Origin: Escherichia coli
GTDB lineage: Bacteria; Pseudomonadota; Gammaproteobacteria; Enterobacterales; Enterobacteriaceae
Assembly: GCF_001677475.2 (NCBI RefSeq)
Contig: NZ_CP015229.1
Direction: 5' to 3' (one strand)
DNA: 64,000 bases
Each line of letters starts with the position of its first letter. Position 1 is the first letter of the stretch. Made by a program: the position numbers and the translations under genes. A model generated the notes under the pieces. That model saw only the letters and a list, made by a program, of their open reading frames with translations, ran no database searches and was not told the origin of the DNA. Shown piece after piece: positions 25,168-60,424 of the stretch.

Positions 25168-25187
25168 GCATTTCTGACGACGGTTTT

Positions 25188-28500: not shown

Positions 28501-28514
28501 GCCGGAGTGATATT

Positions 28515-29249: not shown

Positions 29250-29261
29250 TCGGGAACTTTC

Positions 29262-30119: not shown

Positions 30120-30121
30120 CA

Positions 30122-32616: not shown

Positions 32617-32640
32617 AACCGCTCCGGGTTAATCAGGAGA

Positions 32641-33678: not shown

Positions 33679-34763
33679 TATGCCTCTCCCGTGAGCAACA
33701 CTGTTTTCGGCATGGCGTAGAGCACTTCTGCGCCTTGCGGGGTAACCAGCACAACATCTTCGATGCGCACGCCCCCTTGCCCTGGCAAATAAATCCCCGG
33801 CTCTACGGTCAGTAACATGCCAGGCTGTAGCGTCGTGGTGTCCCTCGGTGAAAAACGCGGATCTTCATGGACTTCAATGCCGATAGCATGACCGGTGTTG
33901 TGGCCAAAATAGTCGCCATAACCGGCTTCTGTAATGACCCGGCGCGCGGCATCGTCAACCTGCTGGCAGCGCACGCCGGGGCGAATCGCGGAGATTGCCG
34001 CGAGCTGTGCCTGCAGGACAATCTGATAGACGTTAAACAGCGGGTGAGATTCGGCGCTCACCCCTTCGCCATTCACCAGCAAGGTGCGCGTCATATCAGA
34101 GCAGTAGCCCTGATATAGCGCACCGAAATCGAGAGTGACAAACTCGCCCGCTGCAACAATCTTGTCGCTGGCTTTGCCGTGCGGCAGCGCCCCACGCCAG
34201 CCACTGGCGACAATGGTGTCAAAAGAGGCTTTTTCTGCGCCCTGCTGGCGCATAAACCACTCCAGTTCAGCGGCTATCTCGCGCTCGCTCATCCCCGCCT
34301 GAATAAAGCGGCGAATATGCTCCGCTCCGCGATCGGCAATCCCACAGGCGAGGCGGATTTTCTCCACCTCCTCTGGCGTTTTGATTTGCCGCAGCACATC
34401 CGGCGTGGCGCTTACCAGTTTCGCATTGAGTTCAGACTGCCAGCGGTGCGCGGTTTCCCAACTCACCTGCTGGCCTTCAAAACCGAGCGTTTGCAACTGC
34501 TCATCGGCAATGATTTGCCTGACGACGGTTGTAAGCGTGTGCGTCGCGTCAAGCAAATGCAGCGGGTAGCCTTGCGTGCGAGCTTCCACATCCGCGTAAT
34601 AGCGCGAATCCACCAGAATGTGCGCACTTTCACGGCTAATCACCACATAACCTGATCCGGTGGAGATCCCCAGATGCGGCTGTTTGTTCTGCCGTGAGGA
34701 GAGAAGCACTGCATCCAGTTGTTGCGCCTTAAGCCAGTCGCGCAGCGAAGCGAGTAATGTCAT
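33678..34763 (-). CDS. ypdF: M24B-family Xaa-Pro aminopeptidase
   Basis: 361-aa ORF with creatinase/prolidase-fold C-terminal domain ([13 protein letters not shown]). Confidence 0.85.
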
Positions 34764-34777
34764 CTGGATTTTCCTTC

Positions 34778-36025
34778 TTACAGGCTATCGATTAACAATT
34801 TACCTTTGCGGAACATCATCAGACGCAGGAACACCACCATCAGCGCAGTTATGACTGCCCCCAGCGCGATCCCCGCCATATAGACGCCCAGGTTAGTGAC
34901 CAGCGGCCATGCCCAGATAGCGGATTCCGGGAACCATTGCACTGCGCCCAGCCAGACAGCGGCGGTTGAGCCGACAATAGCACCGACCATATACGACGGA
35001 ATGGCGGTGATGGGACTTTCCAGCGCAAACGGAATCGCACCTTCACTGATCCCCATAAACGCCAGGAACATCGCGGTTTTACCCTGCGGATAAAGTTGGG
35101 CGTTGAACAGACGTTTGCCGGTTAAACGGCGGTCGATAATGGTCGCCAGACCCAGACCAATCGGCGGAATAACAATAGCGATGGAACGCGCGGTAACCGG
35201 TAATACGTGGTCAGTGGTAAAGCTGAAGGCAACGAAACCAGCTGCTTTGTTGATCGGGCCACCAAGGTCGATTGCTGTCGCCGCGGCGATCCCCATCGCG
35301 TACATCAGCGCGCCCTTCTCACCTGCGGCAGTCAGCACGGTACGGATACCGCCGTTGATCCAGCCACCAAAGGGGGTGATGACGTAGTACATCGCCAACA
35401 TGACAAAAATGGCGGAAAGAATCGGTAGCAAAAATGTGGTTTTGAACGCTAACAGGAATTCCGGTAACTGGATTTTCTGGTTCATCCACTTCACAAGGTA
35501 ACCAGCAACGATAGAAATAATCAGGGCACCAATGAAGGTGGACGGCACCGGCGAAGAGGTCGCCCATTGCATAGTGCTGGGATCGAAGTTCAGCAGTTGC
35601 GTCGGCTGGGTAGACATCAACCCGCCGATAAAACCAGCCGGGAACGCCAGTTTGCCACCGATAGAGTTCGCCACAAATGCAGCAAACATCGGAATGGCAA
35701 AACCAAACAACACGCCGCCGAAGGACTGCGACAACCAGGCAAATTTCAGTAAGGAGAGGTCGAAACCGGAGAATTTCCCGCTATTAAGAGCATCCATGAT
35801 GCCGATATCAGCAGGAATTTTAAGCCAGCTATAAGCAATCAGCTGGCTGAAAGCGAGGATCACACCGCCCATAATTAAGGTCGGCACCATGCGTGAAATC
35901 CCTGACATCACATGCTGCGGGAGTTCACCCCAGAAGCTGCTTTTAGAGGCCTGCGGATTCTTAACTGCCGCTGCCGCACCGGATGCGCCAGGCACAACGG
36001 TTGCACTGCGTTTTTTAATGGCCAT
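34778..36025 (-). CDS. fryC: PTS fructose-like EIIC permease
   Basis: 415-aa polytopic membrane ORF of the PTS EIIC fructose family. Confidence 0.85.
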
Positions 36026-36046
36026 AACAATTATCCCTGTCGAATA

Positions 36047-36373
36047 TTACTGTTGTTCAGAGGCAATCATCTCTTCGATTTCTTTGATGATGCCCGCAGC
36101 GTTTTTAATTGCGTCCTGCAAAGTGATTTCATAAACGTCGCGTGATTCGAAACGTTCGTTATCTTCCGGGGTAACTGCCACTGAGTGGATGATGATGGTC
36201 GCTTCGGCGATATCCTGCACCGTCAGGCGATTCTGGATGCCGTCCGCGCCCTGAGTTTCAATTTTCACTTCATAGCCTGCTTCCACCGCCGCTTCTTCCA
36301 GCGCCTGGGCTGCCATAAAGGTGTGAGCCAGACCCATAGGGCAGGCACATAAAGCAATCAGTTTCTTACTCAT
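36047..36373 (-). CDS. fryB: PTS fructose-like EIIB component
   Basis: Start placed at MSKKLIALCACPMGLAHT (active-site Cys motif); track ORF is 5'-extended. Confidence 0.8.
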   Translation of the reverse strand: MSKKLIALCACPMGLAHTFMAAQALEEAAVEAGYEVKIETQGADGIQNRLTVQDIAEATIIIHSVAVTPEDNERFESRDVYEITLQDAIKNAAGIIKEIEEMIASEQQ

Positions 36374-36549
36374 CGTTAATTCCTCGTTCAGTGATAGTTG
36401 ACGATTGAAATTATGAACGTGCAAAACAAATCGCCGTTACCAGACAAATAATGCATTTACTGGAGAATTAATCCCGCTGTACGGAAGTGTGACGCAGGTC
36501 GGCCTTGTGAGGAGGACACAAAGAAAAATTGAATTAACTGTATGATTTA

Positions 36550-36580
36550 AAAGATTATCGGGAGAATTACCTCCCGATAT
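36550..36580 (-). terminator. Intrinsic terminator hairpin downstream of glk (TCGGGAG-AATTACC-TCCCGA)
   Basis: Perfect inverted repeat followed by T-rich tract on the minus strand. Confidence 0.5.
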
Positions 36581-36592
36581 AACAGGAAGGAT

Positions 36593-37558
36593 TTACAGAA
36601 TGTGCCCTAAGGTCTGGCGTAAATGTGCACCGGAACCGAGAAGACCCGGATTGTCATGGACGATGAGATACACCGGAATATCATGGACATATTCTTTAAA
36701 GCGCCCTTTATCTTCAAATGCGGCACGGAAACCAGAGGCTTTGAAGAACTCAAGGAAGCGCGGCACGATACCGCCCGCAATAAACACGCCGCCAAATGTC
36801 CCTAGATTGAGCGCCAGATTGCCGCCAAAACGGCCCATAATGACGCAAAACAGCGACAACGCGCGGCGGCAATCGGTGCAGCTGTCAGCCAGCGCGCGTT
36901 CGGTAATATCTTTTGGCTTGAGATTTTCTGGCAGGCGGTTGTCGGCTTTAACAATTGCGCGATACAAATTCACCAGCCCAGGGCCAGAAAGCACGCGTTC
37001 CGCCGAAACATGGCCAATTTCCGCACGCAGTATTTCGAGGATAATGGCCTCTTCTTCACTATTCGGCGCAAAATCAACGTGACCGCCTTCGCCTGGCAAG
37101 CTTACCCAACGCTTATCGACATGGACCAGATGTGCAACCCCAAGCCCCGTTCCGGCACCGTAAACCGCAATAGGCTTACCTTCGACCGGTTCTGCGCCAC
37201 CAAACTGAATCAGATGCTCTTTTTTCAGCATCGGGATCGCCATCGATACAGCGGTAAAATCGTTAATAATTTCCAGATGGCTAAAACCGAGATTCTTTTT
37301 CATTTCGGCAATTGAGAACGCCCAGGTATGGTTGGTCATTGCCACCCAGTCACCGGTAATTGGGCAAGCGATGGCAATACAGCCGTCTTTCACCTCGACC
37401 TTATGTTCTTCAAGATAAACGCGAATGACCGCTTCGAGGCTGGGGTAATCAAGCCCTGAATAGGTCTTAGCCTGCGAGATTTCACCACTGGCAATATCAC
37501 ACAGAGCAAGACGTGCGTTGGTGCCGCCCACATCACCGACTAATGCATACTTTGTCAT
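36593..37558 (-). CDS. glk: Glucokinase (ROK-like)
   Basis: 321-aa [22 protein letters not shown]... with glucokinase ATP-binding N-terminus. Confidence 0.9.
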
Positions 37559-37761
37559 TCTTCAACTGCTCCGCTAAAGTCAAAATAATTCTTTCTCACA
37601 CTGTAAATTCCTGGGGGCATAACAACAACGCCGGAAAGGCAGGCTCCCTGTAAATATCGATCTGGGTCACACAATTACTTTATCGTTTCAGCACCAATTG
37701 CAGCGATGCCTTTTTGCAAGCTGGGCAAACTAAGTATCTGACCCCGCATAAGGAATAGAAC

Positions 37762-39018
37762 ATGCTCCATCCGCGAGCCAGAACCATGTTGTTATTATCG
37801 CTCCCCGCCGTGGCAATTGGGATTGCGTCCAGTCTTATTCTGATTGTGGTGATGAAAATCGCCTCGGTATTACAGAATTTGCTCTGGCAACGACTGCCGG
37901 GAACTCTGGGGATAGCCCAGGATTCACCTTTCTGGATCATCGCCATATTAACGCTAACAGGTATTGCGGTGGGGTTGGTTATCCGTTTCAGCCAGGGGCA
38001 TGCTGGACCAGACCCCGCCTGTGAACCGCTGATCGGCGCACCGGTTCCGCCCTCTGCGCTACCAGGACTTATCGTAGCATTAATTCTCGGTCTTGCTGGC
38101 GGCGTCAGCCTGGGGCCGGAACATCCGATCATGACCGTCAATATCGCCCTTGCCGTCGCCATTGGCGCTCGTCTGTTACCGCGCGTCAACCGAATGGAGT
38201 GGACTATTTTAGCCTCTGCCGGAACCATCGGCGCGCTGTTTGGCACACCTGTTGCGGCGGCGTTGATATTTTCGCAAACCTTAAATGGCAGTAATGAAGT
38301 GCCGCTATGGGATCGACTCTTTGCGCCGTTAATGGCAGCGGCGGCTGGTGCGCTGACGACAAGTCTATTTTTCCACCCCCATTTTTCGCTGCCCATTGCG
38401 CATTACGGACAGATGCAGATGGCAGACATTATCAGCGGTGCGATTGTAGCGGCGATTGCCATCGCTGCGGGGATGGTCGCCGTATGGTGTCTGCCACGGT
38501 TGCACGCAATGATGCATCAGATTAAAAACCCTGTGCTTATGCTCGGGGTTGGCGGGTTTATTCTCGGTATTTTGGGGGTTATTGGTGGGCCGGTTTCACT
38601 GTTTAAAGGGCTGGATGAGATGCAGCAAATGGTGATGAATCAGGCTTTCAGCACCAGTGATTACTTTTTACTGGCGGTGATTAAGCTCGCCGCTCTGGTC
38701 ATTGCCGCCGCCAGCGGGTTTCGTGGCGGGCGAATCTTCCCGGCAGTGTTTGTTGGCGTGGCGTTAGGTTTGATGCTACATGAACACGTTCCCGCAGTCC
38801 CGGCGGCAATTACTGTCTCCTGCGCTATTCTCGGTATGGTACTGGTGGTAACGCGCGATGGCTGGTTAAGCCTGTTTATGGCGGCAGTCGTTGTACCTGA
38901 TACCAATCTGCTACCGCTACTTTGTATCGTTATGCTTCCGGCATGGCTATTGCTGGCTGGCAAACCGATGATGATTGTGAATCGCCCGAAGCAGCAACCA
39001 CCCCACGATAATCTTTAG
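37762..39018 (+). CDS. yfeO: ClC-family voltage-gated chloride channel-like membrane protein
   Basis: 418-aa polytopic ORF with ClC-like GxxxGPxxP motifs (GVSLGPEHP). Confidence 0.85.
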
Positions 39019-39132
39019 CAAAAAATGCTCTCCATCATGATTTAAGAGTTATGGCGATGAAACGGGGCTTTACCTCCCCGTAATATTGCGTTAACAGGCC
39101 GCTGACGGCTTCGATCGTGAAGGAGAATATCA

Positions 39133-39459
39133 ATGTTCAGGTCACTGTTTCTGGCGGCCGCCCTGATGGCTTTTACCCCGCTTGCGGCAAACGCAGGTGA
39201 AATTACCCTACTGCCATCAATCAAATTACAAATTGGCGATCGCGATCATTACGGTAATTACTGGGACGGTGGTCATTGGCGCGACCGTGATTACTGGCAT
39301 CGTAATTACGAATGGCGTAAAAACCGCTGGTGGCGTCACGATAATGGCTACCACCGTGGCTGGGATAAGCGTAAAGCGTATGAGCGTGGCTATCGTGAAG
39401 GCTGGCGCGACCGTGATGATCATCGAGGGAAAGGCCGTGGACACGGACATCGTCATTAA
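39133..39459 (+). CDS. ypeC: Secreted low-complexity protein (DUF2502), rich in Trp/Arg/His/Asp/Gly
   Basis: 108-aa ORF with signal peptide [21 protein letters not shown] followed by repeats such as [34 protein letters not shown]. Confidence 0.75.
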
Positions 39460-39482
39460 ACACATCCACCAATGGAGCACGA

Positions 39483-39575
<93 letters not shown>

Positions 39576-39600
39576 TGTGCCTGGTACGACGCCAGTTGAA

Positions 39601-40848
<1,248 letters not shown>

Positions 40849-40851
40849 CTA

Positions 40852-40873
40852 AAACATAGCCTTTGCTATGTTT
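40852..40873. promoter_or_regulatory. MntR operator palindrome AAACATAGC-N4-GCTATGTTT in mntH leader
   Basis: Near-perfect inverted repeat 13 bp upstream of mntH start codon; matches the MntR box reported for mntH. Confidence 0.6.
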
Positions 40874-40887
40874 CATGCTATGCCAAA

Positions 40888-40912
40888 CGAGAATGATTAT
40901 CAAATTCATTTG
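40888..40912. promoter_or_regulatory. Fur-box-like sequence in mntH promoter
   Basis: Minus-strand CAAATGAATTTGATAATCATTCTCG resembles Fur consensus GATAATGATAATCATTATC. Confidence 0.45.
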
Positions 40913-41174
40913 AATGGATTGTGGTGATTTCTCTGATAGACCAGGATTATGACTACGAAAAGATTGATGACTTGAATGTTATGGTTATGTTTAATGTTAG
41001 CACATTTACATAACTTTCAGCTTCCATACACAACATAGCAGAAATGTATGACAGCTCACTATTTTTGAAGCTTGTCACAGGACGTCATTATAGTGTGTGT
41101 CAGATCTCGTTTTCCTTAACCATGTTACATAGAATGTGCACGGAAATTTAACCTGCCTCATATTTGGAGCAAAT

Positions 41175-42377
41175 ATGGACCGCGTCCTTCATTTTGTACT
41201 GGCACTTGCCGTTGTTGCGATTCTCGCACTGCTGGTAAGCAGCGACCGCAAAAAAATTCGTATCCGTTATGTTATTCAACTGCTTGTTATCGAAGTGTTA
41301 CTGGCGTGGTTCTTCCTGAACTCCGACGTTGGTTTGGGCTTCGTGAAAGGCTTCTCCGAAATGTTCGAAAAACTGCTCGGATTTGCCAACGAAGGGACTA
41401 ACTTCGTCTTTGGTAGCATGAATGATCAAGGCCTGGCATTCTTCTTCCTGAAAGTGCTGTGCCCAATCGTCTTTATCTCTGCACTGATCGGTATTCTCCA
41501 GCACATTCGCGTGTTGCCGGTGATTATCCGCGCAATTGGTTTCCTGCTCTCCAAAGTCAACGGTATGGGCAAACTGGAATCCTTTAACGCCGTCAGCTCC
41601 CTGATTCTGGGTCAGTCTGAAAACTTTATTGCCTATAAAGATATCCTTGGCAAAATCTCCCGTAACCGTATGTACACCATGGCAGCAACGGCGATGTCCA
41701 CCGTTTCTATGTCCATCGTTGGTGCATACATGACCATGCTGGAGCCGAAATATGTCGTTGCAGCGCTGGTACTGAATATGTTCAGCACATTTATCGTGCT
41801 GTCGCTGATCAACCCGTACCGTGTTGATGCCAGTGAAGAAAACATTCAGATGTCCAACCTGCACGAAGGTCAGAGCTTCTTCGAAATGCTGGGTGAATAC
41901 ATTCTGGCAGGTTTCAAAGTTGCCATTATCGTTGCCGCAATGCTGATCGGCTTTATCGCCCTGATCGCGGCGCTGAACGCACTGTTTGCCACCGTGACTG
42001 GCTGGTTTGGCTACAGCATCTCCTTCCAGGGCATCCTGGGCTACATCTTCTATCCGATTGCATGGGTGATGGGTGTTCCGTCCAGCGAAGCACTGCAGGT
42101 GGGCAGTATCATGGCGACCAAACTGGTTTCCAACGAGTTCGTTGCGATGATGGATCTGCAGAAAATTGCTTCCACGCTCTCTCCGCGTGCTGAAGGCATC
42201 ATCTCTGTGTTCCTGGTTTCCTTCGCTAACTTCTCTTCAATCGGGATTATCGCAGGTGCAGTTAAAGGCCTGAATGAAGAGCAAGGTAACGTGGTTTCTC
42301 GCTTCGGTCTGAAGCTGGTTTACGGCTCTACCCTGGTGAGTGTGCTGTCTGCGTCAATCGCAGCACTGGTGCTGTAA
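41175..42377 (+). CDS. nupC: Nucleoside:H+ symporter (CNT family)
   Basis: Start placed at [14 protein letters not shown] (400 aa); track ORF starts 39 nt upstream. Confidence 0.9.
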
Positions 42378-42388
42378 GCACCATACAT

Positions 42389-42420
42389 AAAAAAGCCGGG
42401 GATAATTCCCCGGCTTTTTT
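42389..42420. terminator. Bidirectional intrinsic terminator between convergent nupC and pdeA (AAAAAGCCGGGG-ATAA-TTCCCCGGCTTTTTT)
   Basis: Perfect GC-rich stem flanked by A-run and T-run. Confidence 0.7.
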
Positions 42421-44824: not shown

Positions 44825-44900
<76 letters not shown>

Positions 44901-45924: not shown

Positions 45925-47340
45925 TTACTGCTGATTTTCGCGTTCAGCAATAAAGGCCAGCGCTTTGTTGATACGCTCAATGCTACGTGTCTTACCGATC
46001 GCGTGAACGGTAACATCCAGTGCTGGAGACTGCCCCGCACCGGTTACGGCGACACGCAGCGGCATACCAACTTTACCCATACCCACTTCCAACTCATCCG
46101 CCGTCGCCTGAATAGCGTGATGAACGTTTTCAGCGGTCCAGTCAGTAATCGCGGCCAGTTTGTCACGAACCACTTCCAGCGGCTGACGCGCTACCGGACG
46201 CAGATGTTTTTTCGCGGCGTCGGCATCGAACTCTGCAAAATCTTCGTAGAAATAACGGCAGCTCTGTGCCATCTCTTTCAGCGTCTTGCAGCGTTCGCCC
46301 AGCAGTTTCACCAGATCAGCCAGCTGCGGGCCGTTACGGGTATCGATATTTTCCTGCTCAATGTGCCACTGTAAGTGAGTAGCAACATACTCCGGCGGCA
46401 GCGCGTTAATGTAGTGATGGTTCAGCCACAGCAACTTGTCGGTGTTGAACGCACTGGCAGATTTGCTGACGGCATTCAAAGTGAAGTATTTGATCATCTC
46501 TTCACGAGTGAAGATTTCCTGATCGCCGTGGGACCAGCCCAGACGCACCAGATAGTTCAGCAGTGCTTCTGGCAAATAACCGTCATCACGGTACTGCATT
46601 ACGCTGACCGCCCCGTGACGTTTGGACAGTTTTTTACCGTCATCGCCGTTGATCATAGAAACGTGCGCGTAAACCGGCACCGGCGCTTTCAGGGCTTTAA
46701 GAATGTTGATCTGGCGCGGCGTGTTGTTGATATGGTCTTCGCCACGGATAACATGGGTGATTTCCATATCCCAGTCATCAACAACCACACAGAAGTTATA
46801 GGTTGGGGAACCATCGGTACGGCGAATGATCAGATCATCCAGCTCCTGGTTGCTGAACTCAATCGGGCCACGGATCTGATCGTCAAAAACAACAGAACCT
46901 TCCTGCGGGTTAGCAAAACGTACAACGCACGGTTCATCATCAGCATGATGCTCATGGCTGTGGCGGCAGCGACCGTCATAACGCGGCTTCTCACCTTTCG
47001 CCATTTGTTCTTCGCGCAGCGCTTCCAGGCGCTCTTTAGAGCAATAGCATTTATAAGCAGTGCCCTCTTCCAGCATCTGATCGATCACCGCGTTGTAGCG
47101 ATCAAAACGTTTGGTCTGGAAGTACGGACCTTCATCCCACTCCAGGCTCAGCCAGTTCATGCCATCCATAATGGCTTCGATAGCTTCCGGCGTGGAACGC
47201 TCAAGATCGGTGTCTTCAATACGCAGCACGAACTCACCGCCGTGGTTACGTGCAAAAAGCCAGGAGTAAAGAGCAGTACGCGCGCCGCCAACGTGCAGAT
47301 AGCCTGTTGGGCTTGGCGCGAAGCGAGTTTTGATTTTCAT
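45925..47340 (-). CDS. gltX: Glutamyl-tRNA synthetase
   Basis: 471-aa class I aaRS with HVGG-type motif ([17 protein letters not shown]) and KMSKS-like KLSKR. Confidence 0.9.
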
Positions 47341-47553: not shown

Positions 47554-47581
47554 TTGACTCATTTTGAACTCTCCCTATAAT
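47554..47581 (+). promoter_or_regulatory. Sigma70-type promoter for the tRNA-Val/Lys operon (-35 TTGACT, 16-bp spacer, -10 TATAAT, GC-rich discriminator)
   Basis: Consensus hexamers read directly, about 18 bp upstream of the first tRNA-Val. Confidence 0.6.
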
Positions 47582-47598
47582 GCGACTCCACACAGCGG

Positions 47599-47674
47599 GG
47601 GTGATTAGCTCAGCTGGGAGAGCACCTCCCTTACAAGGAGGGGGTCGGCGGTTCGATCCCGTCATCACCCACCA
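47599..47674 (+). tRNA. valU: tRNA-Val (anticodon UAC), copy 1
   Basis: 76-nt GGGTGATTAGCTCAGCTGGGAGAGCACCTCCCTTACAAGGAGGGGGTCGGCGGTTCGATCCCGTCATCACCCACCA. Confidence 0.9.
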
Positions 47675-47718
47675 ACTACTTTATGTAGTCTCCGCCGTGT
47701 AGCAAGAAATTGAGAAGT

Positions 47719-47794
47719 GGGTGATTAGCTCAGCTGGGAGAGCACCTCCCTTACAAGGAGGGGGTCGGCGGTTCGATCCCGTCATCACCCACCA
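47719..47794 (+). tRNA. valX: tRNA-Val (anticodon UAC), copy 2
   Basis: Identical 76-nt sequence to copy 1, separated by a 44-bp spacer. Confidence 0.9.
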
Positions 47795-47798
47795 CTTC

Positions 47799-47874
47799 GG
47801 GTCGTTAGCTCAGTTGGTAGAGCAGTTGACTTTTAATCAATTGGTCGCAGGTTCGAATCCTGCACGACCCACCA
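47799..47874 (+). tRNA. lysV: tRNA-Lys (anticodon UUU)
   Basis: GGGTCGTTAGCTCAGTTGGTAGAGCAGTTGACTTTTAATCAATTGGTCGCAGGTTCGAATCCTGCACGACCCACCA. Confidence 0.9.
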
Positions 47875-47878
47875 ATGT

Positions 47879-47906
47879 AAAAAAGCGCCCTAAAGGCGCT
47901 TTTTTG
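47879..47906. terminator. Intrinsic terminator after tRNA operon (AAAAAAGCGCC-CTAA-AGGCGCTTTTTT), bidirectional with xapR
   Basis: Perfect stem with flanking A/T runs. Confidence 0.7.
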
Positions 47907-47982
47907 CTATCTGCGATTTGCGAAATTGCCTGATGCGCTTCACTTAGCAGACTACTATTTCCGGCAATTCCTGTCTCCTCAC

Positions 47983-48867
47983 CTACTGTGTCAATGCAGC
48001 CAACAGCTTAACCATCGCGGGCGTCACCTGCTGTGTTTCATAAACAATATATAAATCTGCAGGGATGCGCTGTTTGAGCGGACGGAAAATGACACCTGGC
48101 CAGTTCATTTGTGCGTAGCTGTCCGCTATCAATGTGATACCAATGCCCATACTGACCATGGCGAGTACCGTTTGCGGTTCATTAACTTCGCGAATAACAA
48201 CCGGTGAAAATCCCACCTGCTGGCAAACTCGCTGCAAAAAATCCCAGTCAGTGTACACGGGCGGCATTGTAACAAAATACTCGTCACGTAGCGCTTCCAG
48301 CGGGACGGTGGAAAATGATGAGAAATGATGCTCTTCAGGCATCGCCACCAGAAACGCCGATTCATGCAACCGTAAGCTGGTAAAACCTGCAGGTGGTTCT
48401 GTTGCCATTCGCCAGATACCGGCATCGAGTTCACGTCGTTCCAGCAGGGTCATTTGCATCGCGGGCATCTTTTCGCGAAAAAGAACGTCAACGTTAGGAT
48501 TTTCCCTGAGGAATCGCCGCATAACCGGGCGCATCCGTCCCCACATTGCCGTTCCCACTACGCCGAGTTCAATCCGCCCTGCTTCTCCCCGACCTATTTG
48601 TTCAACCCGAGCCAATACATTATTAGCATTCACCAGCAATCGACGCGATTCTTCCATCAAGATTTTGCCCGCGTGTGTCAGTACGACGCTGCGCGAATGG
48701 CGAATAAAAAGCTGCGTGCCGAGTTGATTTTCCAGCTCTTTAATATGAATACTGAGCGGAGGCTGAGACATATTTAAACGCGCTGCTGCGCGACCAAAAT
48801 GCAACTCTTCCGCTACGGCAAGAAAATAACGGAGCAACTTAAGATCTGTTCTGTATACGCGTTCCAT
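47983..48867 (-). CDS. xapR: LysR-family activator of xanthosine operon
   Basis: Start placed at MERVYRTDLKLLRYF (about 294 aa); N-terminal LysR HTH. Confidence 0.85.
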   Translation of the reverse strand: MERVYRTDLKLLRYFLAVAEELHFGRAAARLNMSQPPLSIHIKELENQLGTQLFIRHSRSVVLTHAGKILMEESRRLLVNANNVLARVEQIGRGEAGRIELGVVGTAMWGRMRPVMRRFLRENPNVDVLFREKMPAMQMTLLERRELDAGIWRMATEPPAGFTSLRLHESAFLVAMPEEHHFSSFSTVPLEALRDEYFVTMPPVYTDWDFLQRVCQQVGFSPVVIREVNEPQTVLAMVSMGIGITLIADSYAQMNWPGVIFRPLKQRIPADLYIVYETQQVTPAMVKLLAALTQ

Positions 48868-48907
48868 AATTAAGTGCTCCATATAATAAATACATCGTAT
48901 TAAATTA

Positions 48908-49069
48908 TCATGGCATAAAGTATTTCACCACCAGATATCCGACATACATAAACACAATGGATAATATACCTGGTAATACATTTGGTACAGGAATAGGCAA
49001 GCGCACGATTGTAAACAAAGCACCAATGCCAAAACCAACGCCGGAAGAAAATAAAATATCTTTCACTAA
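48908..49069 (-). CDS. Candidate small hydrophobic protein (53 codons, GTG start), unannotated
   Basis: Minus-strand ORF VKDILFSSGVGFGIGALFTIVRLPIPVPNVLPGILSIVFMYVGYLVVKYFMP with AAGG Shine-Dalgarno-like sequence about 8 nt upstream; two predicted hydrophobic segments; not in ORF track (no ATG). Confidence 0.25.
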   Translation of the reverse strand, partial: LVKDILFSSGVGFGIGALFTIVRLPIPVPNVLPGILSIVFMYVGYLVVKYFMP

Positions 49070-49118
49070 TTAACCTTTATCATAAAAGCAGCTCTGAAGA
49101 GCAGAGCTGCGAATCCTT

Positions 49119-50375
49119 TTAATGAGCCACCGCTCGATGCTTTATCTTTTCAGGGTCATGATTATATTTAAACCCAAAGAAAAATATCACTGCGAGAAAA
49201 AGAGCATATCCTGCAAACACCAGCCAGATAGTTTGCCAGTCTTTTACGCCATCCACCGAAAAGTAATCTACTGCCATACCGCTCAGAATCGAGCCAATCC
49301 ATGCGCCGACACCATTTACCATGGTCATAAAGAGCCCCTGCGCGCTGGCACGAATGCTGGAATCAACTTCCTGTTCGACAAATACCGAACCAGAAATATT
49401 GAAGAAATCGAATGCACAGCCATAAACAATCATCGACAGCAGCAGCAAAATAAATCCGGTTGTTGACGGATCGCCATAGGCGAAGAAGCCAAAGCGCAGC
49501 GTCCAGGCCACCATACTCATCAGCATGACGGTTTTAATTCCAAATCGCTTTAAAAAGAATGGGATAGTCAGTATAAAGCCCACTTCTGCCATCTGTGAAA
49601 CCGACAGTAAAATGGAGGGATATTTCACCACAAAACTGTCAGCAAACTCCGGGTTACGGGCGAAATCATGTAGGAACGGATTACCAAAAACGTTGGTAAT
49701 TTGCAGTACCGCACCCAGCATCATGGCAAAGAGGAAAAAGATGGCCATGCGTGGATTTTTAAACAGCACGAAGGCATCCAGACCCAGCTTGCTGGCAAGC
49801 GATGTGGTCGTTTTTTTCTCCGCAACCGGAATCTTCGGCAAAGTCAGCGCATAAGCCGACAGCAGCAATGACGCACCGGACGCGATATACAGCTGCAGAC
49901 TACTCAATTCCAGATGCAGCAGGCTTACTGCCCACATCGCGACAATGAACCCCACCGTACCAAAAACGCGAATGGGCGGGAAAGCGGTCACCGGGTCAAG
50001 CCCTGCCTGGGCAAGACAGGAATAAGAGACGCTGTTCGATAACGCAATAGTCGGCATAAACGCCATCGCATTGACTAACATCACCCAAAACATCATATCC
50101 GGATCAGTTACGGATGCCGCATAAAAAAGTACGCCCGCACACACCAGGTGACATAGCATGTATGCACGTTCTGCGCGCAGCCATTTGTCTGCGATGATCC
50201 CCATTATACCAGGCATAATAATCGCGGCGATCCCTTTGGAACTGTAAACCATGCCAACATTAGCGCCGGTGAAATGAAGGGTATTAATCATGTAAGAACC
50301 GAGGGTAACCAGCCAGCTCCCCCAGATAAAATATTGCAAAAAGGACATTACCTTTAAGCGCAAAGCGATGCTCAT
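49119..50375 (-). CDS. xapB: Xanthosine:H+ symporter (MFS nucleoside permease)
   Basis: 418-aa MFS ORF. Confidence 0.9.
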   Translation of the reverse strand: MSIALRLKVMSFLQYFIWGSWLVTLGSYMINTLHFTGANVGMVYSSKGIAAIIMPGIMGIIADKWLRAERAYMLCHLVCAGVLFYAASVTDPDMMFWVMLVNAMAFMPTIALSNSVSYSCLAQAGLDPVTAFPPIRVFGTVGFIVAMWAVSLLHLELSSLQLYIASGASLLLSAYALTLPKIPVAEKKTTTSLASKLGLDAFVLFKNPRMAIFFLFAMMLGAVLQITNVFGNPFLHDFARNPEFADSFVVKYPSILLSVSQMAEVGFILTIPFFLKRFGIKTVMLMSMVAWTLRFGFFAYGDPSTTGFILLLLSMIVYGCAFDFFNISGSVFVEQEVDSSIRASAQGLFMTMVNGVGAWIGSILSGMAVDYFSVDGVKDWQTIWLVFAGYALFLAVIFFFGFKYNHDPEKIKHRAVAH

Positions 50376-50435
50376 AATCGTTTCCTTGTCGCATCATATG
50401 GCCTCACTCAGTGAGGCCGTTTATTGTTGTTTTAC

Positions 50436-51269
50436 TCAGGCAATTTTGCGCAGAAAGCCGCAAATAAGATTAATAAAGTTTTGCTTTGAGAGTTCCGCTG
50501 CTGCCAGCGTTTGGGCATGAGAAAGCTTCACGTCACTCAGACCTTCCGCCATGTTGGTAATCGCAGAGACCGCAACGACTTTAAGGTCGCAATGGCGAGC
50601 TGAAATAACCTCAGGCACCACAGACATACCAACAACATCCCCACCAATAATTTGCATCATGCGAATTTCCGCCGCAGTCTCGAAATTCGGCCCCGGATAC
50701 GAGACGAACACGCCCTCCGTCAGAGAGAAACCCTCTTCTTTTGCCACTTTTTGTAACAGTGCGCGGTATTCCGCATCGTAGGCATTTGCCAGTGAGAAGA
50801 AACGCTCGCCAAAACGATCATCGTTAAGACCCACCATCGGCGTACCTGGCATGGCGTTGATATGATCTTTCAATGCGACCAGGCTGCCTGCCCCCACTTC
50901 CGGACGCAGCGAGCCTGCCGCATTGGTGCAGAACAGTAGCTCGCAGCCCAGCAGCTTAAAGGTACGAATTGCGTCAGTCATAATGGTCATTCCACGACCT
51001 TCGTAGAAATGTCCGCGACCTTTCATACATACCACCGGTACGCCCTGGAGATGGCCCAGCACTAACTCCCCCGCATGACCATGTACCGTACTTACCGGGA
51101 AGCCCGGCAGCTTTTCGTAGGAAATTGCGACAGCGTTCTCAATCTGATCGGCCAGCGCGCCCAGCCCGGAACCTAAAATAAAGGCCACTCGTGGCGTGAA
51201 ATCAGGTTTATAAGTCTTGATAATATCTATGCAAAACAGCGGGTTATGAGAAAATTGAACCTGAGGCAT
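50436..51269 (-). CDS. xapA: Xanthosine (purine nucleoside) phosphorylase II
   Basis: 277-aa PNP/MTAP family ORF. Confidence 0.9.
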   Translation of the reverse strand: MPQVQFSHNPLFCIDIIKTYKPDFTPRVAFILGSGLGALADQIENAVAISYEKLPGFPVSTVHGHAGELVLGHLQGVPVVCMKGRGHFYEGRGMTIMTDAIRTFKLLGCELLFCTNAAGSLRPEVGAGSLVALKDHINAMPGTPMVGLNDDRFGERFFSLANAYDAEYRALLQKVAKEEGFSLTEGVFVSYPGPNFETAAEIRMMQIIGGDVVGMSVVPEVISARHCDLKVVAVSAITNMAEGLSDVKLSHAQTLAAAELSKQNFINLICGFLRKIA

Positions 51270-51517
51270 ATATATCCTTTTTCTGTAGGGTGGAATCTAA
51301 CGCCTTTTTATAGCGAGGTTGTCCCGGCTCTTACCAATACACTTTTCTCACGCATTCAATAGCGATTCGATATCGATGGATTTATATCTTTTCTCTATTA
51401 ATCCACGGTAAAAACTGTATTGGCGATATTAATTCCTTTGCATTAACAATATGTCGTTTTTAGCAAACCACTTTATTAAGCAATCTACTAATAACGATCG
51501 GCATAGGGAATTATGCT

Positions 51518-52282
51518 ATGAAAAAACATCTTTTAACTCTGACACTTTCCTCTATATTAGCGATACCTGTTATATCTCATGCAGAATTTAAAGGCGGTTT
51601 TGCAGATATCGGCGTGCATTATCTGGACTGGACCAGCCGGACTACCGAAAAATCGTCGACCAAATCACACAAAGATGATTTTGGTTATCTTGAAATTGAA
51701 GGTGGCGCTAACTTTAGTTGGGGAGAAATGTACGGGTTCTTCGACTGGGAAAACTTCTATAACGGTCGCCATAATAAACCAGGTAGCGAGCAGCGTTATA
51801 CCTTTAAAAATACCAACCGTATTTACCTGGGTGACACCGGATTTAATCTTTACCTGCACACGTATGGCACCTACGGGTCTGCGAATCGTGTGAATTTCCA
51901 CGACGATATGTTCCTGTACGGTGTCGGCTACAATTTCACCGGCAGCGGTTGGTGGTTCAAACCGTTCTTTGCTAAGCGTTATACAGATCAAACCTATTAC
52001 ACTGGCGACAACGGCTATGTCGCCGGCTGGGTTGCAGGTTACAACTTTATGCTGGGCAGCGAGAAATTCACTCTTACCAACTGGAACGAGTACGAGTTTG
52101 ACCGTGACGCTACCTATGCAGCGGGTAATGGCGGTAAAGAAGGGCTGAATGGCGCAGTTGCACTGTGGTGGAATGCAACATCACACATCACTACGGGGAT
52201 TCAGTATCGATATGCGGATGACAAACTGGGCGAAGATTTTTACCAGGATGCGATAATCTACTCCATCAAATTTAACTTCTGA
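51518..52282 (+). CDS. yfeN: Putative outer-membrane beta-barrel protein
   Basis: 254-aa ORF with signal peptide and C-terminal aromatic residue (F); alternating-hydrophobic beta pattern. Confidence 0.75.
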   Translation: MKKHLLTLTLSSILAIPVISHAEFKGGFADIGVHYLDWTSRTTEKSSTKSHKDDFGYLEIEGGANFSWGEMYGFFDWENFYNGRHNKPGSEQRYTFKNTNRIYLGDTGFNLYLHTYGTYGSANRVNFHDDMFLYGVGYNFTGSGWWFKPFFAKRYTDQTYYTGDNGYVAGWVAGYNFMLGSEKFTLTNWNEYEFDRDATYAAGNGGKEGLNGAVALWWNATSHITTGIQYRYADDKLGEDFYQDAIIYSIKFNF

Positions 52283-52320
52283 TTGATTCCTGCCGGGGCT
52301 CCCGGCAGTATGAATTCACT

Positions 52321-53247
52321 CTATATCTGATACAACGGATCCCCTTCCCGCCCAGCCATTAGCGCATGGCCCTGGTCTCGTACCACGTCCCATAACGCTT
52401 GTGCGGCGGTGGAAAGTGAACGGTTCTTCCTGCGCACCAGCATCAACTGGCGTTCCACCACCGGCGTAATGCGCTTTACCACCAGCGGGCTACCTTCAGG
52501 TAACGGCAGCGCCAGTGCGGGAAGAATACTGATGCCGATGCCTGCGGCTACCATCGGGAACAGCGTCGCCGGATGTCCAATCTCCTGCACAATATTCGCC
52601 TGAATACCATTGCGCGCCAGCGCTGCGTCAATCAGCGGTCGGCTGCCTGACGCGTAATCCTGCAACACCAATTTCGCTCCCTGTAATGCCTGCCAGGGTA
52701 CATAATCTTCCACGGCCAAAGCGCTATCGCGATGGCAAAGCAGAAAGAAAGGCTCGGAAAGAATCGCTTCACATTGCAGATCGCCCACTGGGCCTGGATC
52801 GATGACGATGCCAAAGTCGACATCTCCCTGGCGAATACTTTCCATCACCCACTGCTGCGGACGATCGTGCAGGACAAACTGAATATCTGGATAGCGGCGA
52901 TGGCTTTCAGCAATGCATTGCGGAATAAGATGCGCGGAAATGGTCTGGCTGGCAGCGACGCGAACTTTTCCGCTCAGTTGTTGCCCCATACGCCCGGTAT
53001 CGCGCAACGTACTGTTAAGTTCATCCAGTAGTCGCTCAAGACGCAAAGCCAACTGCTGCCCTGCATCTGTAAGCACCACTTCACGCGTGGTTCTGTCCAG
53101 CAGGCGAACACCAGTATGATTTTCCAGCTCCTTCACACTGTGACTCACTGCCGACTGGCTCAGGCCGATACGCTCTCCTGCACGACTAAAACTTTTCTCC
53201 TGCGCTACTGTGACGAAAACCTTTAATTGTTTTAAAGAATAATTCAT
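52321..53247 (-). CDS. yfeR: LysR-family transcriptional regulator
   Basis: 308-aa ORF with N-terminal LysR HTH ([38 protein letters not shown]). Confidence 0.8.
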
Positions 53248-53336
53248 CTGTTTTCTTCATGAATGGATGCAATAAATCAATTTTATTTCTCAAACTGGAA
53301 GAAGCACAATAGAACCATCGATCATCTGGAGTCTTT

Positions 53337-54335
53337 ATGAAACTTTTTCGTATCCTCGATCCTTTCACCTTAACCCTGATCACGGTGGTGTTGCTGGCCT
53401 CTTTCTTTCCGGCCAGAGGCGATTTCGTCCCCTTCTTTGAAAATCTGACCACCGCAGCTATTGCCCTGCTGTTCTTTATGCACGGCGCGAAGTTGTCGCG
53501 TGAGGCGATTATTGCTGGCGGTGGTCACTGGCGACTGCATTTGTGGGTAATGTGCAGCACCTTCGTGCTGTTTCCGATTCTGGGTGTACTGTTTGCCTGG
53601 TGGAAACCGGTAAATGTCGACCCGATGCTCTACTCCGGTTTTCTCTACTTGTGCATTCTCCCCGCTACCGTGCAGTCTGCAATCGCCTTCACGTCAATGG
53701 CGGGCGGTAACGTCGCGGCGGCGGTTTGTTCTGCGTCAGCATCCAGCCTGCTGGGGATTTTCCTTTCGCCATTGCTGGTTGGCCTGGTGATGAATGTTCA
53801 CGGTGCAGGGGGCAGCCTTGAACAGGTCGGTAAAATTATGCTGCAACTGCTGCTGCCGTTTGTGTTGGGGCATCTTTCCCGGCCGTGGATTGGTGACTGG
53901 GTGTCGCGCAATAAAAAATGGATTGCGAAAACTGACCAGACGTCCATTCTGTTGGTGGTTTATACAGCGTTCAGCGAAGCCGTCGTTAATGGTATCTGGC
54001 ATAAAGTTGGCTGGGGATCATTGCTGTTTATCGTGGTGGTCAGCTGCGTTCTTCTGGCTATCGTGATTGTAGTTAACGTCTTTATGGCACGCCGACTGGG
54101 CTTCAATAAAGCAGATGAAATTACTATCGTCTTTTGTGGTTCGAAAAAGAGTCTGGCAAATGGCATCCCGATGGCAAACATTCTGTTCCCCACAGCGGTG
54201 ATCGGTATGATGGTGCTGCCCCTGATGATTTTCCATCAGATCCAATTGATGGTCTGTGCGGTGCTGGCGCGTCGATACAAACGCCAGACCGAACAGTTAC
54301 AGGCGCAGCAGAAAAGCCGCGCCAATAAAGCTTAA
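53337..54335 (+). CDS. yfeH: Bile acid:sodium symporter (BASS) family membrane protein
   Basis: 332-aa polytopic ORF. Confidence 0.8.
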   Translation: MKLFRILDPFTLTLITVVLLASFFPARGDFVPFFENLTTAAIALLFFMHGAKLSREAIIAGGGHWRLHLWVMCSTFVLFPILGVLFAWWKPVNVDPMLYSGFLYLCILPATVQSAIAFTSMAGGNVAAAVCSASASSLLGIFLSPLLVGLVMNVHGAGGSLEQVGKIMLQLLLPFVLGHLSRPWIGDWVSRNKKWIAKTDQTSILLVVYTAFSEAVVNGIWHKVGWGSLLFIVVVSCVLLAIVIVVNVFMARRLGFNKADEITIVFCGSKKSLANGIPMANILFPTAVIGMMVLPLMIFHQIQLMVCAVLARRYKRQTEQLQAQQKSRANKA

Positions 54336-54550
54336 AGCGGACGCTTCAGGGGCTGGACCAGTTGCGTCAGCCCCTCAGTTTTAATCAGCAGCGTGATTTG
54401 CATTAGCTCACCGAGCTTCCCTGCCGGGAACTCATCTTTGCGGGCAAACCACAGAAGATACTCCTCCGGCAGGTCGATTAAGCGACGCCCTTTGTATTTG
54501 CCAAACGGCATTATCGTATTGGCTATTTCAATCAGCTGCTCTTTTTCCAT
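54332..54550 (-). CDS. ypeB: Small DUF3820-type protein
   Basis: Start placed at MEKEQLIEIANTIMPFGKYKGRRLIDLPEEYLLWF (72 aa); track ORF is 5'-extended into ligA 3' end. Confidence 0.7.
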   Translation of the reverse strand: MEKEQLIEIANTIMPFGKYKGRRLIDLPEEYLLWFARKDEFPAGKLGELMQITLLIKTEGLTQLVQPLKRPL

Positions 54551-54551
54551 C

Positions 54552-56576
<2,025 letters not shown>

Positions 56577-56637
56577 TCAATGCTAAAAACCCCCGACAAG
56601 CGGGGGTTCGAAGAGGAGTTAATTTGCCTTAAGTGTA

Positions 56638-57636
56638 TCAGGCGTTGGCGTCTTTGACTTCGCGGATGATGTCCTGGTACTCGCGCAATTTCTGCGGAGT
56701 CATCATACGGCGCTGATCGTCAAGCACTACACCGCCCACTTCATCGGCAATATGCTGCGCAGATTGCAGCATCAGCTTGAAGTTCTGCAGCTCGTCACCG
56801 TAAGACGGTACCTGCATAAAGATAGTGACACCCGGAGTAGTGAAATCCTTCATTTCAGGATCAAAGGTTCCCGGTTTCACCATATTCGCCAGGCTAAATA
56901 ACGCCGGGCCGCTGCCATCCGGGCTAAGATGACGATGGTAAATATTCATATCGCCAAAAATGAAGCCCGCTTGTTGAATGCTGTTAAGAAGCAGTTCACC
57001 GTTTAGCTCGCTACCGTGATGCGCCGCGACGTTCATGATAATCACCGCTTCTTTGCGCTTCGGTTTATCCATAACTGGAGCCGGTTCCGCTACAGGCTCA
57101 GGCTGTGGTGCCGCTACAGGCTCTGCAGGCTGGAAAGCCTGTTGTGCCGGTTGCGGTGCTGAATGCACTGGCTGCGGCGCTGATGCGACCTGTGGCGAAA
57201 CTGGCTGCTGCAACGGCTGTTCAGGCTGCGGCTGATAGGCAGGCTGCTGCACGGGTTGCTGCACCGGCTGCGCTGGACGCGGAGCATGTTGCGGCGGTAC
57301 CTGCGCTTCAGGCGGCTGCTGGACCGGTTGACGCGGCTGTGCAGACGCATAAGGCGGTTGGTACTGGTGTTGCGGCGACGGACGAGCAGCCTCATGCTCC
57401 TGGGCGTTAGCCGGGGCATGATTCACGCGGTGAACACGAACCTCACCAACGCCCTCATCATCTTCGACATCCTCGTCATAAGAATCGTCGTCACGTTTTG
57501 ACTTCATTCGTTTTAATGGCCGATCGCGGAACATAGAAGATCGTTCTTTACGGCTGGTCCAGAAACCATGTACCAGTAAAGCGATTATGGCGATCGCGCC
57601 AACAATGATTAATATCAGACGCAAATCCTGCATCAT
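56638..57636 (-). CDS. zipA: Cell division protein ZipA (FtsZ membrane anchor)
   Basis: Start placed at [21 protein letters not shown]; N-terminal TM, P/Q-rich linker, C-terminal FtsZ-binding domain. Confidence 0.9.
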
Positions 57637-57865
57637 TATATTCTCTGTTGTTCTAACACCTTGCCACCACGGCAAACATTTACTCACTAAGAGTATTTGC
57701 CGATTACCTCAAGTGCAAGTGCACTATTAACTTTCACAGCACAAAGATAGATGAAATCGTGCTTTTTGCTGTTTTTTCGAACATATCCTAACTGTCCATT
57801 GCGCAATTACCCGGTAAAATACGCAGAATTTTCCTGGGATTGGTCAAAAGGAGCTCATCCTGATT

Positions 57866-58627
57866 ATGGTTTCATCATTCACATCTGCCCCACGCAGCGG
57901 TTTTTACTATTTTGCGCAAGGCTGGAAGCTCGTCTCGCAACCTGGGATTCGGCGTTTCGTTATTTTACCGCTGCTGGTCAATATTTTGTTGATGGGGGGC
58001 GCATTCTGGTGGCTCTTTACGCAACTCGATGTCTGGATCCCGACTCTCATGAGTTATGTTCCGGACTGGTTACAATGGCTGAGCTATCTGTTGTGGCCTC
58101 TGGCTGTCATCTCTGTGCTGTTAGTGTTTGGCTATTTCTTCTCAACGATTGCTAACTGGATTGCCGCTCCGTTCAATGGTTTATTGGCTGAACAACTGGA
58201 AGCACGATTGACTGGCGCTACACCGCCAGATACCGGGATTTTCGGTATCATGAAAGATGTGCCGCGAATCATGAAACGCGAATGGCAAAAATTTGCCTGG
58301 TATCTGCCGCGCGCAATTGTATTGCTAATTCTTTACTTCATCCCTGGTATTGGGCAAACCGTCGCGCCGGTACTGTGGTTCCTGTTTAGCGCCTGGATGT
58401 TAGCCATCCAGTATTGCGATTACCCCTTCGATAACCACAAAGTGCCGTTTAAAGAGATGCGCACCGCCCTGCGCACACGCAAAATCACCAATATGCAGTT
58501 TGGTGCTTTAACCAGTCTGTTTACGATGATCCCTCTGCTTAATCTGTTCATCATGCCCGTTGCCGTTTGTGGTGCGACGGCGATGTGGGTCGATTGCTAT
58601 CGCGATAAACACGCGATGTGGCGGTAA
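57866..58627 (+). CDS. cysZ: Sulfate transporter CysZ
   Basis: 253-aa polytopic membrane ORF. Confidence 0.9.
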
Positions 58628-58811
58628 CAATCTACCGGTTATTTTGTAAACCGCTTGTGTGAAACAGGGGTGGCTTATGCCGCCCCTTATTCCATCTTGC
58701 ATGTCATTATTTCCCTTCTGCATATAGATATGCTAAATCCTTACTTCCGCATATTCTCTGAGCGGGTATGCTACCTGTTGTATCCCAATTTCATACAGTT
58801 AAGGACAGGCC

Positions 58812-59783
58812 ATGAGTAAGATTTTTGAAGATAACTCGCTGACTATCGGTCACACGCCGCTAGTTCGCCTGAATCGCATCGGTAACGGACGCATTCTGGC
58901 GAAGGTGGAATCTCGTAACCCCAGCTTCAGCGTTAAGTGCCGTATCGGTGCCAACATGATTTGGGATGCCGAAAAACGCGGCGTGCTGAAACCAGGCGTT
59001 GAACTGGTTGAACCAACCAGCGGTAATACCGGGATTGCACTGGCCTATGTCGCTGCCGCTCGCGGTTACAAACTTACCCTGACCATGCCAGAAACCATGA
59101 GTATTGAACGCCGCAAGCTGCTGAAAGCGTTAGGTGCAAACCTGGTGCTGACCGAAGGTGCTAAAGGCATGAAAGGCGCAATCCAAAAAGCAGAAGAAAT
59201 TGTCGCCAGCAATCCAGATAAATACCTTCTGCTGCAACAATTCAGCAATCCGGCAAACCCTGAAATTCACGAAAAAACCACCGGTCCGGAGATCTGGGAA
59301 GATACCGACGGTCAGGTTGATGTATTTATTGCTGGCGTTGGCACTGGCGGTACGCTGACCGGCGTCAGCCGCTACATTAAAGGCACCAAAGGCAAGACCG
59401 ATCTTATCTCTGTCGCCGTTGAGCCAACCGATTCTCCAGTTATCGCCCAGGCACTGGCTGGTGAAGAGATTAAACCTGGCCCGCATAAAATTCAGGGTAT
59501 TGGCGCTGGTTTTATCCCGGCTAACCTCGATCTCAAGCTGGTCGATAAAGTCATTGGCATCACCAATGAAGAAGCGATTTCTACCGCGCGTCGTCTGATG
59601 GAAGAAGAAGGTATTCTTGCAGGTATCTCTTCTGGAGCAGCTGTTGCTGCGGCGTTGAAACTACAAGAAGATGAAAGCTTTACCAACAAGAATATTGTGG
59701 TTATTCTACCATCATCGGGTGAGCGTTATTTAAGCACCGCATTGTTTGCCGATCTCTTCACTGAGAAAGAATTGCAACAGTAA
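58812..59783 (+). CDS. cysK: Cysteine synthase A (O-acetylserine sulfhydrylase)
   Basis: 323-aa ORF with PLP-lysine motif (SVKCRIG) and GTGGT loop. Confidence 0.95.
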
Positions 59784-59804
59784 TGCCAGCTTGTTAAAAA
59801 TGCG

Positions 59805-59832
59805 TAAAAAAGCACCTTTTCAGGTGCTTTTT
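59805..59832 (+). terminator. Intrinsic terminator after cysK (AAAAAAGCACC-TTTTCA-GGTGCTTTTTTG)
   Basis: Perfect stem followed by T-run. Confidence 0.7.
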
Positions 59833-60166
59833 TGTGGCCTGCTTCAAACTTTCGCCCCTCCTGGCATTGATTCAGCCTGTCGGAACTGGTATTTAACCAG
59901 ACTAATTATTTTGATGCGCGAAATTAATCGTTACAGGAAAAGCCAAAGCTGAATCGATTTTATGATTTGGTTCAATTCTTCCTTTAGCGGCATAATGTTT
60001 AATGACGTACGAAACGTCAGCGGTCAACACCCGCCAGCAATGGACTGTATTGCGCTCTTCGTGCGTCGCGTCTGTTAAAAACTGGCGCGAACAATACAGG
60101 CTAAAGTCGAACCGCCAGGCTAGACTTTAGTTCCACAACACTAAACCTATAAGTTGGGGAAATACA

Positions 60167-60424
60167 ATGTTCCAGCAAGAAGTTACCATTACCGCTCCGA
60201 ACGGTCTGCACACCCGCCCTGCTGCCCAGTTTGTAAAAGAAGCTAAGGGCTTCACTTCTGAAATTACTGTGACTTCCAACGGCAAAACCGCCAGCGCGAA
60301 AAGCCTGTTTAAACTGCAGACTCTGGGCCTGACTCAAGGTACCGTTGTGACTATCTCCGCAGAAGGCGAAGACGAGCAGAAAGCGGTTGAACATCTGGTT
60401 AAACTGATGGCGGAACTCGAGTAA
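60167..60424 (+). CDS. ptsH: PTS phosphocarrier protein HPr
   Basis: 85-aa [23 protein letters not shown]..., active-site His15 context. Confidence 0.95.

Follow-up and report, generated by a model that had tools for sequence, protein, structure and literature searches.

The valU operon of the window

The window analysed here is a stretch of 64,000 nucleotides from an Escherichia coli genome (assembly GCF_001677475.2, contig NZ_CP015229.1). Between gltX and xapR it contains a short operon of two tRNA-Val(UAC) genes and one tRNA-Lys(UUU) gene (Table 1), in an intergenic region of 642 bp as assembled. The original prediction was of two identical tRNA-Val(UAC) genes with a 44-bp spacer between them, followed by tRNA-Lys(UUU). 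ARAGORN and Rfam agree on both Val genes at the predicted positions, and both also find the Lys gene behind the pair, where it matches lysV exactly. By exact string match the two Val genes have one and the same sequence, which is also that of valU, valX and valY of K-12. The second copy carries the valU-valX spacer on its 5′ side and the CTTC spacer of valY-lysV on its 3′ side. The operon is the orthologue of the valU-valX-valY-lysV stable-RNA operon of E. coli. The exact GltX protein of the window is present in many assemblies.

Table 1. Features of the gltX-xapR region (positions are those of the window)
Feature	Position	Strand	Evidence and remarks
gltX (glutamate--tRNA ligase)	45925-47340	minus	ORF list; gltX in matching E. 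coli records; divergent upstream flank
Sigma-70 promoter	47554-47581	plus	-35 TTGACT 47554-47559, 16-nt spacer, -10 TATAAT 47576-47581
Discriminator GCGACTCC	47582-47589	plus	8 nt; read directly from the sequence
Leader, 9 nt	up to 47598	plus	inferred transcription start at 47590
tRNA-Val(UAC) copy 1, valU equivalent	47599-47674	plus	ARAGORN; Rfam tRNA 65.9 bits; exact K-12 match
Val-Val spacer, 44 bp	47675-47718	plus	same sequence as K-12 valU-valX spacer
tRNA-Val(UAC) copy 2, valX/valY recombinant	47719-47794	plus	ARAGORN; Rfam tRNA 65.9 bits; exact K-12 match
Val-Lys spacer CTTC	47795-47798	plus	4 nt, as in K-12
tRNA-Lys(UUU), lysV	47799-47874	plus	ARAGORN; Rfam tRNA 79.2 bits; exact K-12 lysV match
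Rho-independent terminator hairpin	47877-47907	plus	RNA fold; same as K-12 terminator
Empty site of the 156-bp RtT-like unit	47857-47918	plus	alignment; BLAST boundaries; no Rfam RF00391 match
xapR, 294 aa	47983-48867	minus	downstream flank; rare allele marking the window's lineage

The consensus sigma-70 promoter that had been predicted upstream of the operon scores 11 of 12 in a consensus scan and is base for base the same as in K-12. Its discriminator, described beforehand as GC-rich, has six G or C among eight bases. The mapped transcription start site of K-12 lies 9 nt before the mature valU sequence (PMC4176162). Transfer of this mapping to the window would place the start at 47590. At the other end of the operon the terminator hairpin (A6GCGCC-CUAAA-GGCGCU6) folds with -19.1 kcal/mol (z = -5.8), and none of 200 shuffled sequences was as stable. 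A simple terminator scan of the window did not pick up this hairpin behind lysV, probably since its A and U tracts are, as the fold implies, part of the paired stem. The predicted primary transcript would extend from 47590 to 47907 and thus comprise about 318 nt. The K-12 transcript is about 438 nt long (PMC4176162); subtraction of the 122 bp which are missing in the window (see below) gives 316 nt, to be compared with the predicted length. The polycistronic K-12 transcript is processed in an RNase P-dependent manner in the 3′ to 5′ direction, and RNase P takes off the terminator first (PMC4176162). The same processing is to be expected for the transcript of the window.

Differences from the K-12 operon

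The original prediction gave valU-valX-valY-lysV as the K-12 arrangement, and this is the order which we find in the MG1655 record. The three tandem Val genes of K-12 are not present in the window, which has two and thus carries a copy-number allele of the operon. An alignment with K-12 reveals two clean indels and hardly any other change across the intergenic region of about 640 bp. The first indel is a 122-bp unit, that is, one Val gene together with the 46-bp valX-valY spacer, and the 44-bp valU-valX spacer is kept. The missing 122 bp are exactly one repeat period and both endpoints lie inside the identical Val genes. With the shared flanking bases added to the 76-bp Val genes, the identical block measures about 84 bp. 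The array differs from a pure tandem repeat in that the missing unit carries a unique 46-bp spacer, which reads CTTTCTCGCCAGCTAAATTTCTTGTAAAAATGTGAAGTACCGAAGT in K-12. This spacer was not found anywhere in the window even with up to six mismatches permitted.

The second indel lies 3′ of lysV, where the window is without a 156-bp unit. The K-12 unit combines an RtT-like element (RF00391) with a second copy of the lysV 3′ end and of the terminator; the element itself (L001, 2860-2985) scores 47.3 bits against RF00391, for which the gathering score is 45. The block which is duplicated around RtT in K-12 and some other strains comprises the lysV 3′ end, the terminator and CTATCTGCGAT. In the window RF00391 has no match and the flanking block is single-copy. 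Presence of the unit after lysV was seen in K-12, BW25113, 19M19 and E2863 and its absence in the window, in O103:H2 12009 and in B2-type strains. All four combinations of Val number and RtT occur in closed genomes: three Val with RtT in K-12, three Val without RtT in APEC E16002, two Val with RtT in 19M19 and E2863, and two Val without RtT in O103:H2 12009. The RtT unit is polymorphic in its presence, independently of the Val number.

Number of Val genes in the Enterobacteriaceae

We scanned species-representative genomes for the exact pattern of the Val-CTTC-Lys junction and obtained 68 loci in Enterobacteriaceae. As evaluable we regarded the gltX-adjacent operons which were not cut by the edge of the locus (n = 50). 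Three Val genes are present in 38 of these 50, two in seven, one in four and five in a single operon. The three Escherichia species representatives that were matched all have three Val genes with spacers of 44 and 46 bp. Three Val copies appear to be the ancestral state, and the window therefore shows a loss. The operon with five tandem Val genes belongs to Intestinirhabdus alba; its spacers alternate between 44 and 41 bp, which suggests a duplication of two units. At least four tandem Val genes are found in Kluyvera sichuanensis, where the contig ends within the array.

Copy-number alleles in complete E. coli genomes

Junction-diagnostic megablast queries were used to count the alleles in 5,426 complete E. 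coli genomes. The junction of the window's two-Val allele (spacer 1-Val-CTTC-Lys) is present in 213 genomes. The reciprocal two-Val allele, recognized by the junction leader-Val-spacer 2 followed by Val-Lys, was detected in 133 genomes, and we verified it in JW5437-1 and 2013C-4538. A one-Val form (leader-Val-CTTC-Lys) occurs in 26 genomes and was verified in O157:H7 Xuzhou21. The junction spacer 2-Val-spacer 2, diagnostic for four or more Val genes, gave 79 genomes, a number to be read as an unvalidated upper bound only, as the top matches are laboratory-strain records and the one inspected, Rosetta2-DE3, is scrambled, with a 5S rRNA gene adjoining the Val genes. The remaining genomes with the second spacer have the K-12-type spacer (4,246) or a variant with two SNPs (1,180), and these sets overlap. 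Thus about 6% of the closed genomes have two Val genes, about 0.5% have one and more than 90% have three or more.

All 60 of the listed carriers (of the 213 with the window's allele) have the exact 240-bp two-Val geometry and are annotated with two Val genes and one Lys gene. The backgrounds of the listed carriers include O157:H7 FRIK944, APEC IMT5155, O2:H6, O78:H4, O103:H2, ETEC UMNF18 and mouse isolates. Since the allele of the window is found across unrelated backgrounds, the deletion is recurrent. Also within the K-12 pedigree a unit has been lost. The BW25113 reference (NZ_CP009273.1; L110, 9411-9688) has two Val genes in the arrangement leader-Val-46 bp-Val-Lys, and MG1655 has three. 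The independently assembled Keio strain JW5437-1 has two Val genes of the same type as BW25113. The difference between BW25113 and MG1655, together with the agreeing Keio strain, shows a real loss. In the literature we did not find an explicit statement of this valX copy difference between BW25113 and MG1655.

Among genomes of the O157:H7 type, one Val gene is found in Xuzhou21 and in a draft with O157-type neighbours (L090), two in FRIK944 and three in several drafts with O157-type neighbours, for example L081 and L084. One, two and three Val genes within the highly clonal O157:H7 are either very recent events or assembly differences.

The tRNA-Ala neighbour and other features of the window

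The Val reduction has a counterpart at a distance of 3 kb. At 44825-44900 (minus strand) the window has a single tRNA-Ala(GGC) gene at the place where K-12 and O103:H2 12009 have the alaX-alaW pair with a 39-bp spacer. A 156-nt junction query detected the single-Ala junction in 136 of the 5,426 complete E. coli genomes. A 251-nt Ala query, with 2,000 genomes at a coverage of at least 80%, was rejected as an artefact in which half-matches of two-Ala genomes had been joined. Three tRNA-Ala genes were seen in an unrelated 4.5-Mb ENA contig.

Elsewhere in the window fryA, which encodes a PTS multiphosphoryl transfer protein, has a 1-bp deletion relative to K-12 at about position 31990. The 831-codon gene is split into the overlapping open reading frames 30122-31972 and 31858-32616 on the minus strand, which could reflect either a pseudogene or a sequencing error.

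The lineage of the window

Over 24 kb the window reaches at best 97.9% identity to a genome among the 5,426 complete ones of E. coli, and none of the GTDB Escherichia species representatives is close to it. Identity to K-12 and to O103:H2 12009 varies between 96.4% and 99.3% by segment and is 96.4-96.7% across 24000-42400. The window belongs to E. coli taken broadly, with a lineage that is absent from the closed-genome collection. The XapR allele is rare, with 51 blocks in the assembly collection; the 299-aa form of the XapR open reading frame gave no record in this collection. The XapB allele was found in only 13 contigs of a large assembly collection. The alleles of GltX (11,813 blocks) and PdeA were dropped as lineage markers as both are too common.

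All identified members of the lineage are draft WGS assemblies. The closest one (L092/L112; GCA_033692955.1, 596-kb contig ABOXQW010000001.1) matches the window over 21,257 bp at 100.000% identity, with two Val genes and one Ala gene. An independent assembly (L093; GCA_018682815.1) has one mismatch in 7.5 kb, two Val genes and two Ala genes. Three Val genes and one Ala gene are found in L091, which shares the XapR allele and is 100% identical upstream and 99.5% downstream. L094, also with this XapR allele and about 99-99.8% identical, has three Val genes and the RtT unit. Thus the closest relatives have two Val genes and the more distant ones three, which maps the Val loss to the clone of the window and is the pattern that a real deletion specific to this clade would give. 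The nearest relatives of the window by flank have three Val genes, so the deletion in the window is probably independent of the O103:H2 12009-type clade and not inherited. The Val/Ala counts of the near-identical relatives are mixed (2/1, 2/2 and 3/1). The Ala count is discordant with relatedness: L092 has one Ala gene, L093, which is 1 SNP away, has two, and L091 again has one.

Several contigs of the lineage stop at the operon, namely L095 and L096 (same XapR allele, 99.4-99.9% identity) and the Logan contig L099/L113 of a 100%-identical clone-mate. Another contig, that of a clone-mate (L097/L111; GCA_033745465.1, ABOZJN010000010.1) is 100% identical to the window from 47799 to 60375. In this contig cpoB-pal-tolB and the seven-gene lysT operon run directly into the DNA downstream of lysV. 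We take the lysT and valU operons of K-12 to be on the same strand; for valU alone the orientation was confirmed from the record. Assuming this K-12 orientation, the join would be a deletion-type junction which removes about 1.7 Mb and would be non-viable. For this reason we regard a mis-join by the assembler, made through the Lys gene and terminator that are identical in the two operons, as the most likely origin of the contig.

Loss, gain or assembly collapse

The original prediction had left the choice between a real copy-number difference and a collapsed repeat. This caution was well founded, as two-Val operons are real in closed genomes and drafts related to the clone break or are mis-joined at this very place. 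The two Val copies of the window are taken from the assembled sequence. In our view the valU operon of the window has likely lost one 122-bp unit by recombination or slippage with the rest of the operon intact. We favour a real deletion because exactly one period is gone and the sequence is otherwise identical to K-12 including promoter and terminator, and because the same junction is present in 213 of 5,426 complete genomes and is shared by the closest relatives. It seems rather unlikely that the isolate carries a third Val gene (and possibly a second Ala gene) and that a short-read assembler crossed the Val node only twice. The loop with the 46-bp spacer would then have been dropped, left as a fragment of less than 200 bp and discarded. 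Such a collapse would have to remove unique sequence, beyond merging identical copies, and it would have to happen at an identical block which at about 84 bp is shorter than typical modern reads. Nevertheless, the contig ends and the mis-join at the operons of the clone-related drafts demonstrate that this operon is hard for the assemblers used, and all members of the lineage that were found are drafts. Two rare tandem reductions, of Val and of Ala, lie within 3 kb, and near-identical relatives disagree in their Val and Ala counts, as would result from stochastic collapse. Some records that are labelled complete are scrambled at the locus as well, for example Rosetta2-DE3. On the other hand, two separately accessioned assemblies (L092 and L093) both have two Val genes, and the allele of the window is frequent in closed genomes, one of which, O103:H2 12009, is finished. 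Three Val genes are resolved in drafts of related and unrelated strains (L081, L086-L089, L091 and L094). Draft assemblies are thus able to resolve three copies.

If the difference is real, the direction of the change could also be the reverse, with two Val genes as the ancestral state in the lineage of the window and a third copy gained by duplication in K-12-like strains. Tandem duplication would be possible via the same recombination mechanism, and arrays of at least four and of five Val genes are known in other genera (Kluyvera and Intestinirhabdus, see above). Nonetheless, we consider this gain highly improbable. Three copies are the rule in the Escherichia representatives (3/3), in the gltX-linked operons of the Enterobacteriaceae (38/50) and, as three or more, in over 90% of the complete E. 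coli genomes, and the nearest non-clonal relatives L091 and L094 have three as well. Moreover, the two spacers differ in sequence, therefore the third unit is old and not a recent duplicate.

Mechanism and meaning of the probable loss

Deletion of one period between direct repeats is a standard outcome of RecA-dependent unequal exchange or of slippage. We infer the mechanism of the deletion, the transcript with its processing and the neutrality of the change as follows. The identical 76-bp Val genes would serve as the substrate for unequal homologous recombination or replication slippage, with removal of the 122-bp unit as the result. From such an array one would further expect the reciprocal two-Val allele and the one-Val allele as products. 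The remaining operon would be intact and transcribed from the unchanged sigma-70 promoter into an RNA of about 318 nt, as against about 438 nt in K-12. RNase P would then remove the terminator and cleave from 3′ to 5′, which would set free the pre-tRNAs, two for Val and one for Lys. With two genes in place of three, the operon would contribute a modestly lower dosage of tRNA-Val(UAC) genes. Since K-12 has further Val(UAC) genes, identical to valU, valX and valY, in its lysT operon, the loss of one Val copy is expected to be nearly neutral with function unchanged apart from dosage. In K-12 the entire valUXY-lysV unit can be deleted; the lysT unit can not (PMC11480407).

One could go further and regard the valU operon and alaW/alaX as high-frequency copy-number switches with which the dosage of tRNA-Val(UAC) and tRNA-Ala(GGC) is tuned by selection in particular lineages and does not drift neutrally. 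Units would then be lost and gained so often that even near-clonal isolates differ. Such a reading would fit the mixed counts in the relatives, the difference between MG1655 and BW25113 and the scatter of the window's allele across unrelated serotypes. The same observations would follow just as well from neutral recurrent deletion together with some assembly error, and we think that tuning by selection is improbable.

The biological weight of the loss is small, as it concerns one fewer redundant tRNA gene in an operon which is wholly deletable in K-12. For annotation and tRNA counting some caution is advisable: even among closed genomes a few percent deviate by one unit in the valU operon and the tRNA-Ala pair, and short-read assemblies break or are mis-joined at both places. 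As structural markers, the two-Val alleles, the one-Val allele and the RtT indel could cheaply be used to type lineages or to check assembly quality at the locus.

Comparison with known systems

What we describe here is a well-known operon with a recurrent copy-number allele that has been seen before; an assembly collapse of the operon is less likely. With the valU-valX-valY-lysV operon of MG1655 (b2401-b2404) the window shares the position between gltX and xapR, the promoter, the leader, the Val and Lys genes, the 44-bp spacer, CTTC and the terminator; MG1655 has in addition the 122-bp unit of a Val gene plus 46-bp spacer and the 156-bp RtT-like unit. The finished genome of O103:H2 12009 has the same arrangement as the window (leader-Val-44 bp-Val-CTTC-Lys) and likewise lacks RtT, but its flanking DNA is about 1-1.5% different and it retains two tRNA-Ala genes. 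In BW25113 and 132 other complete genomes exactly one repeat unit of the valU operon is gone, as in the window. It is, however, the other unit: BW25113 keeps the 46-bp spacer, lacks the 44-bp spacer, has a valU/valX recombinant and retains RtT.

In the part of McDonald et al. 2015 (PMC4539685) that we draw on, it is called typical for E. coli and Shigella strains to differ by plus or minus one in the copies of a tRNA gene. The same class of event, plus or minus one in tandem arrays of identical tRNA genes, is described there, for example for glyVXY. That part of the study centres on the phage-borne gains argO, glyT and thrU and does not single out the valU operon, for which the window provides an instance of this event class.
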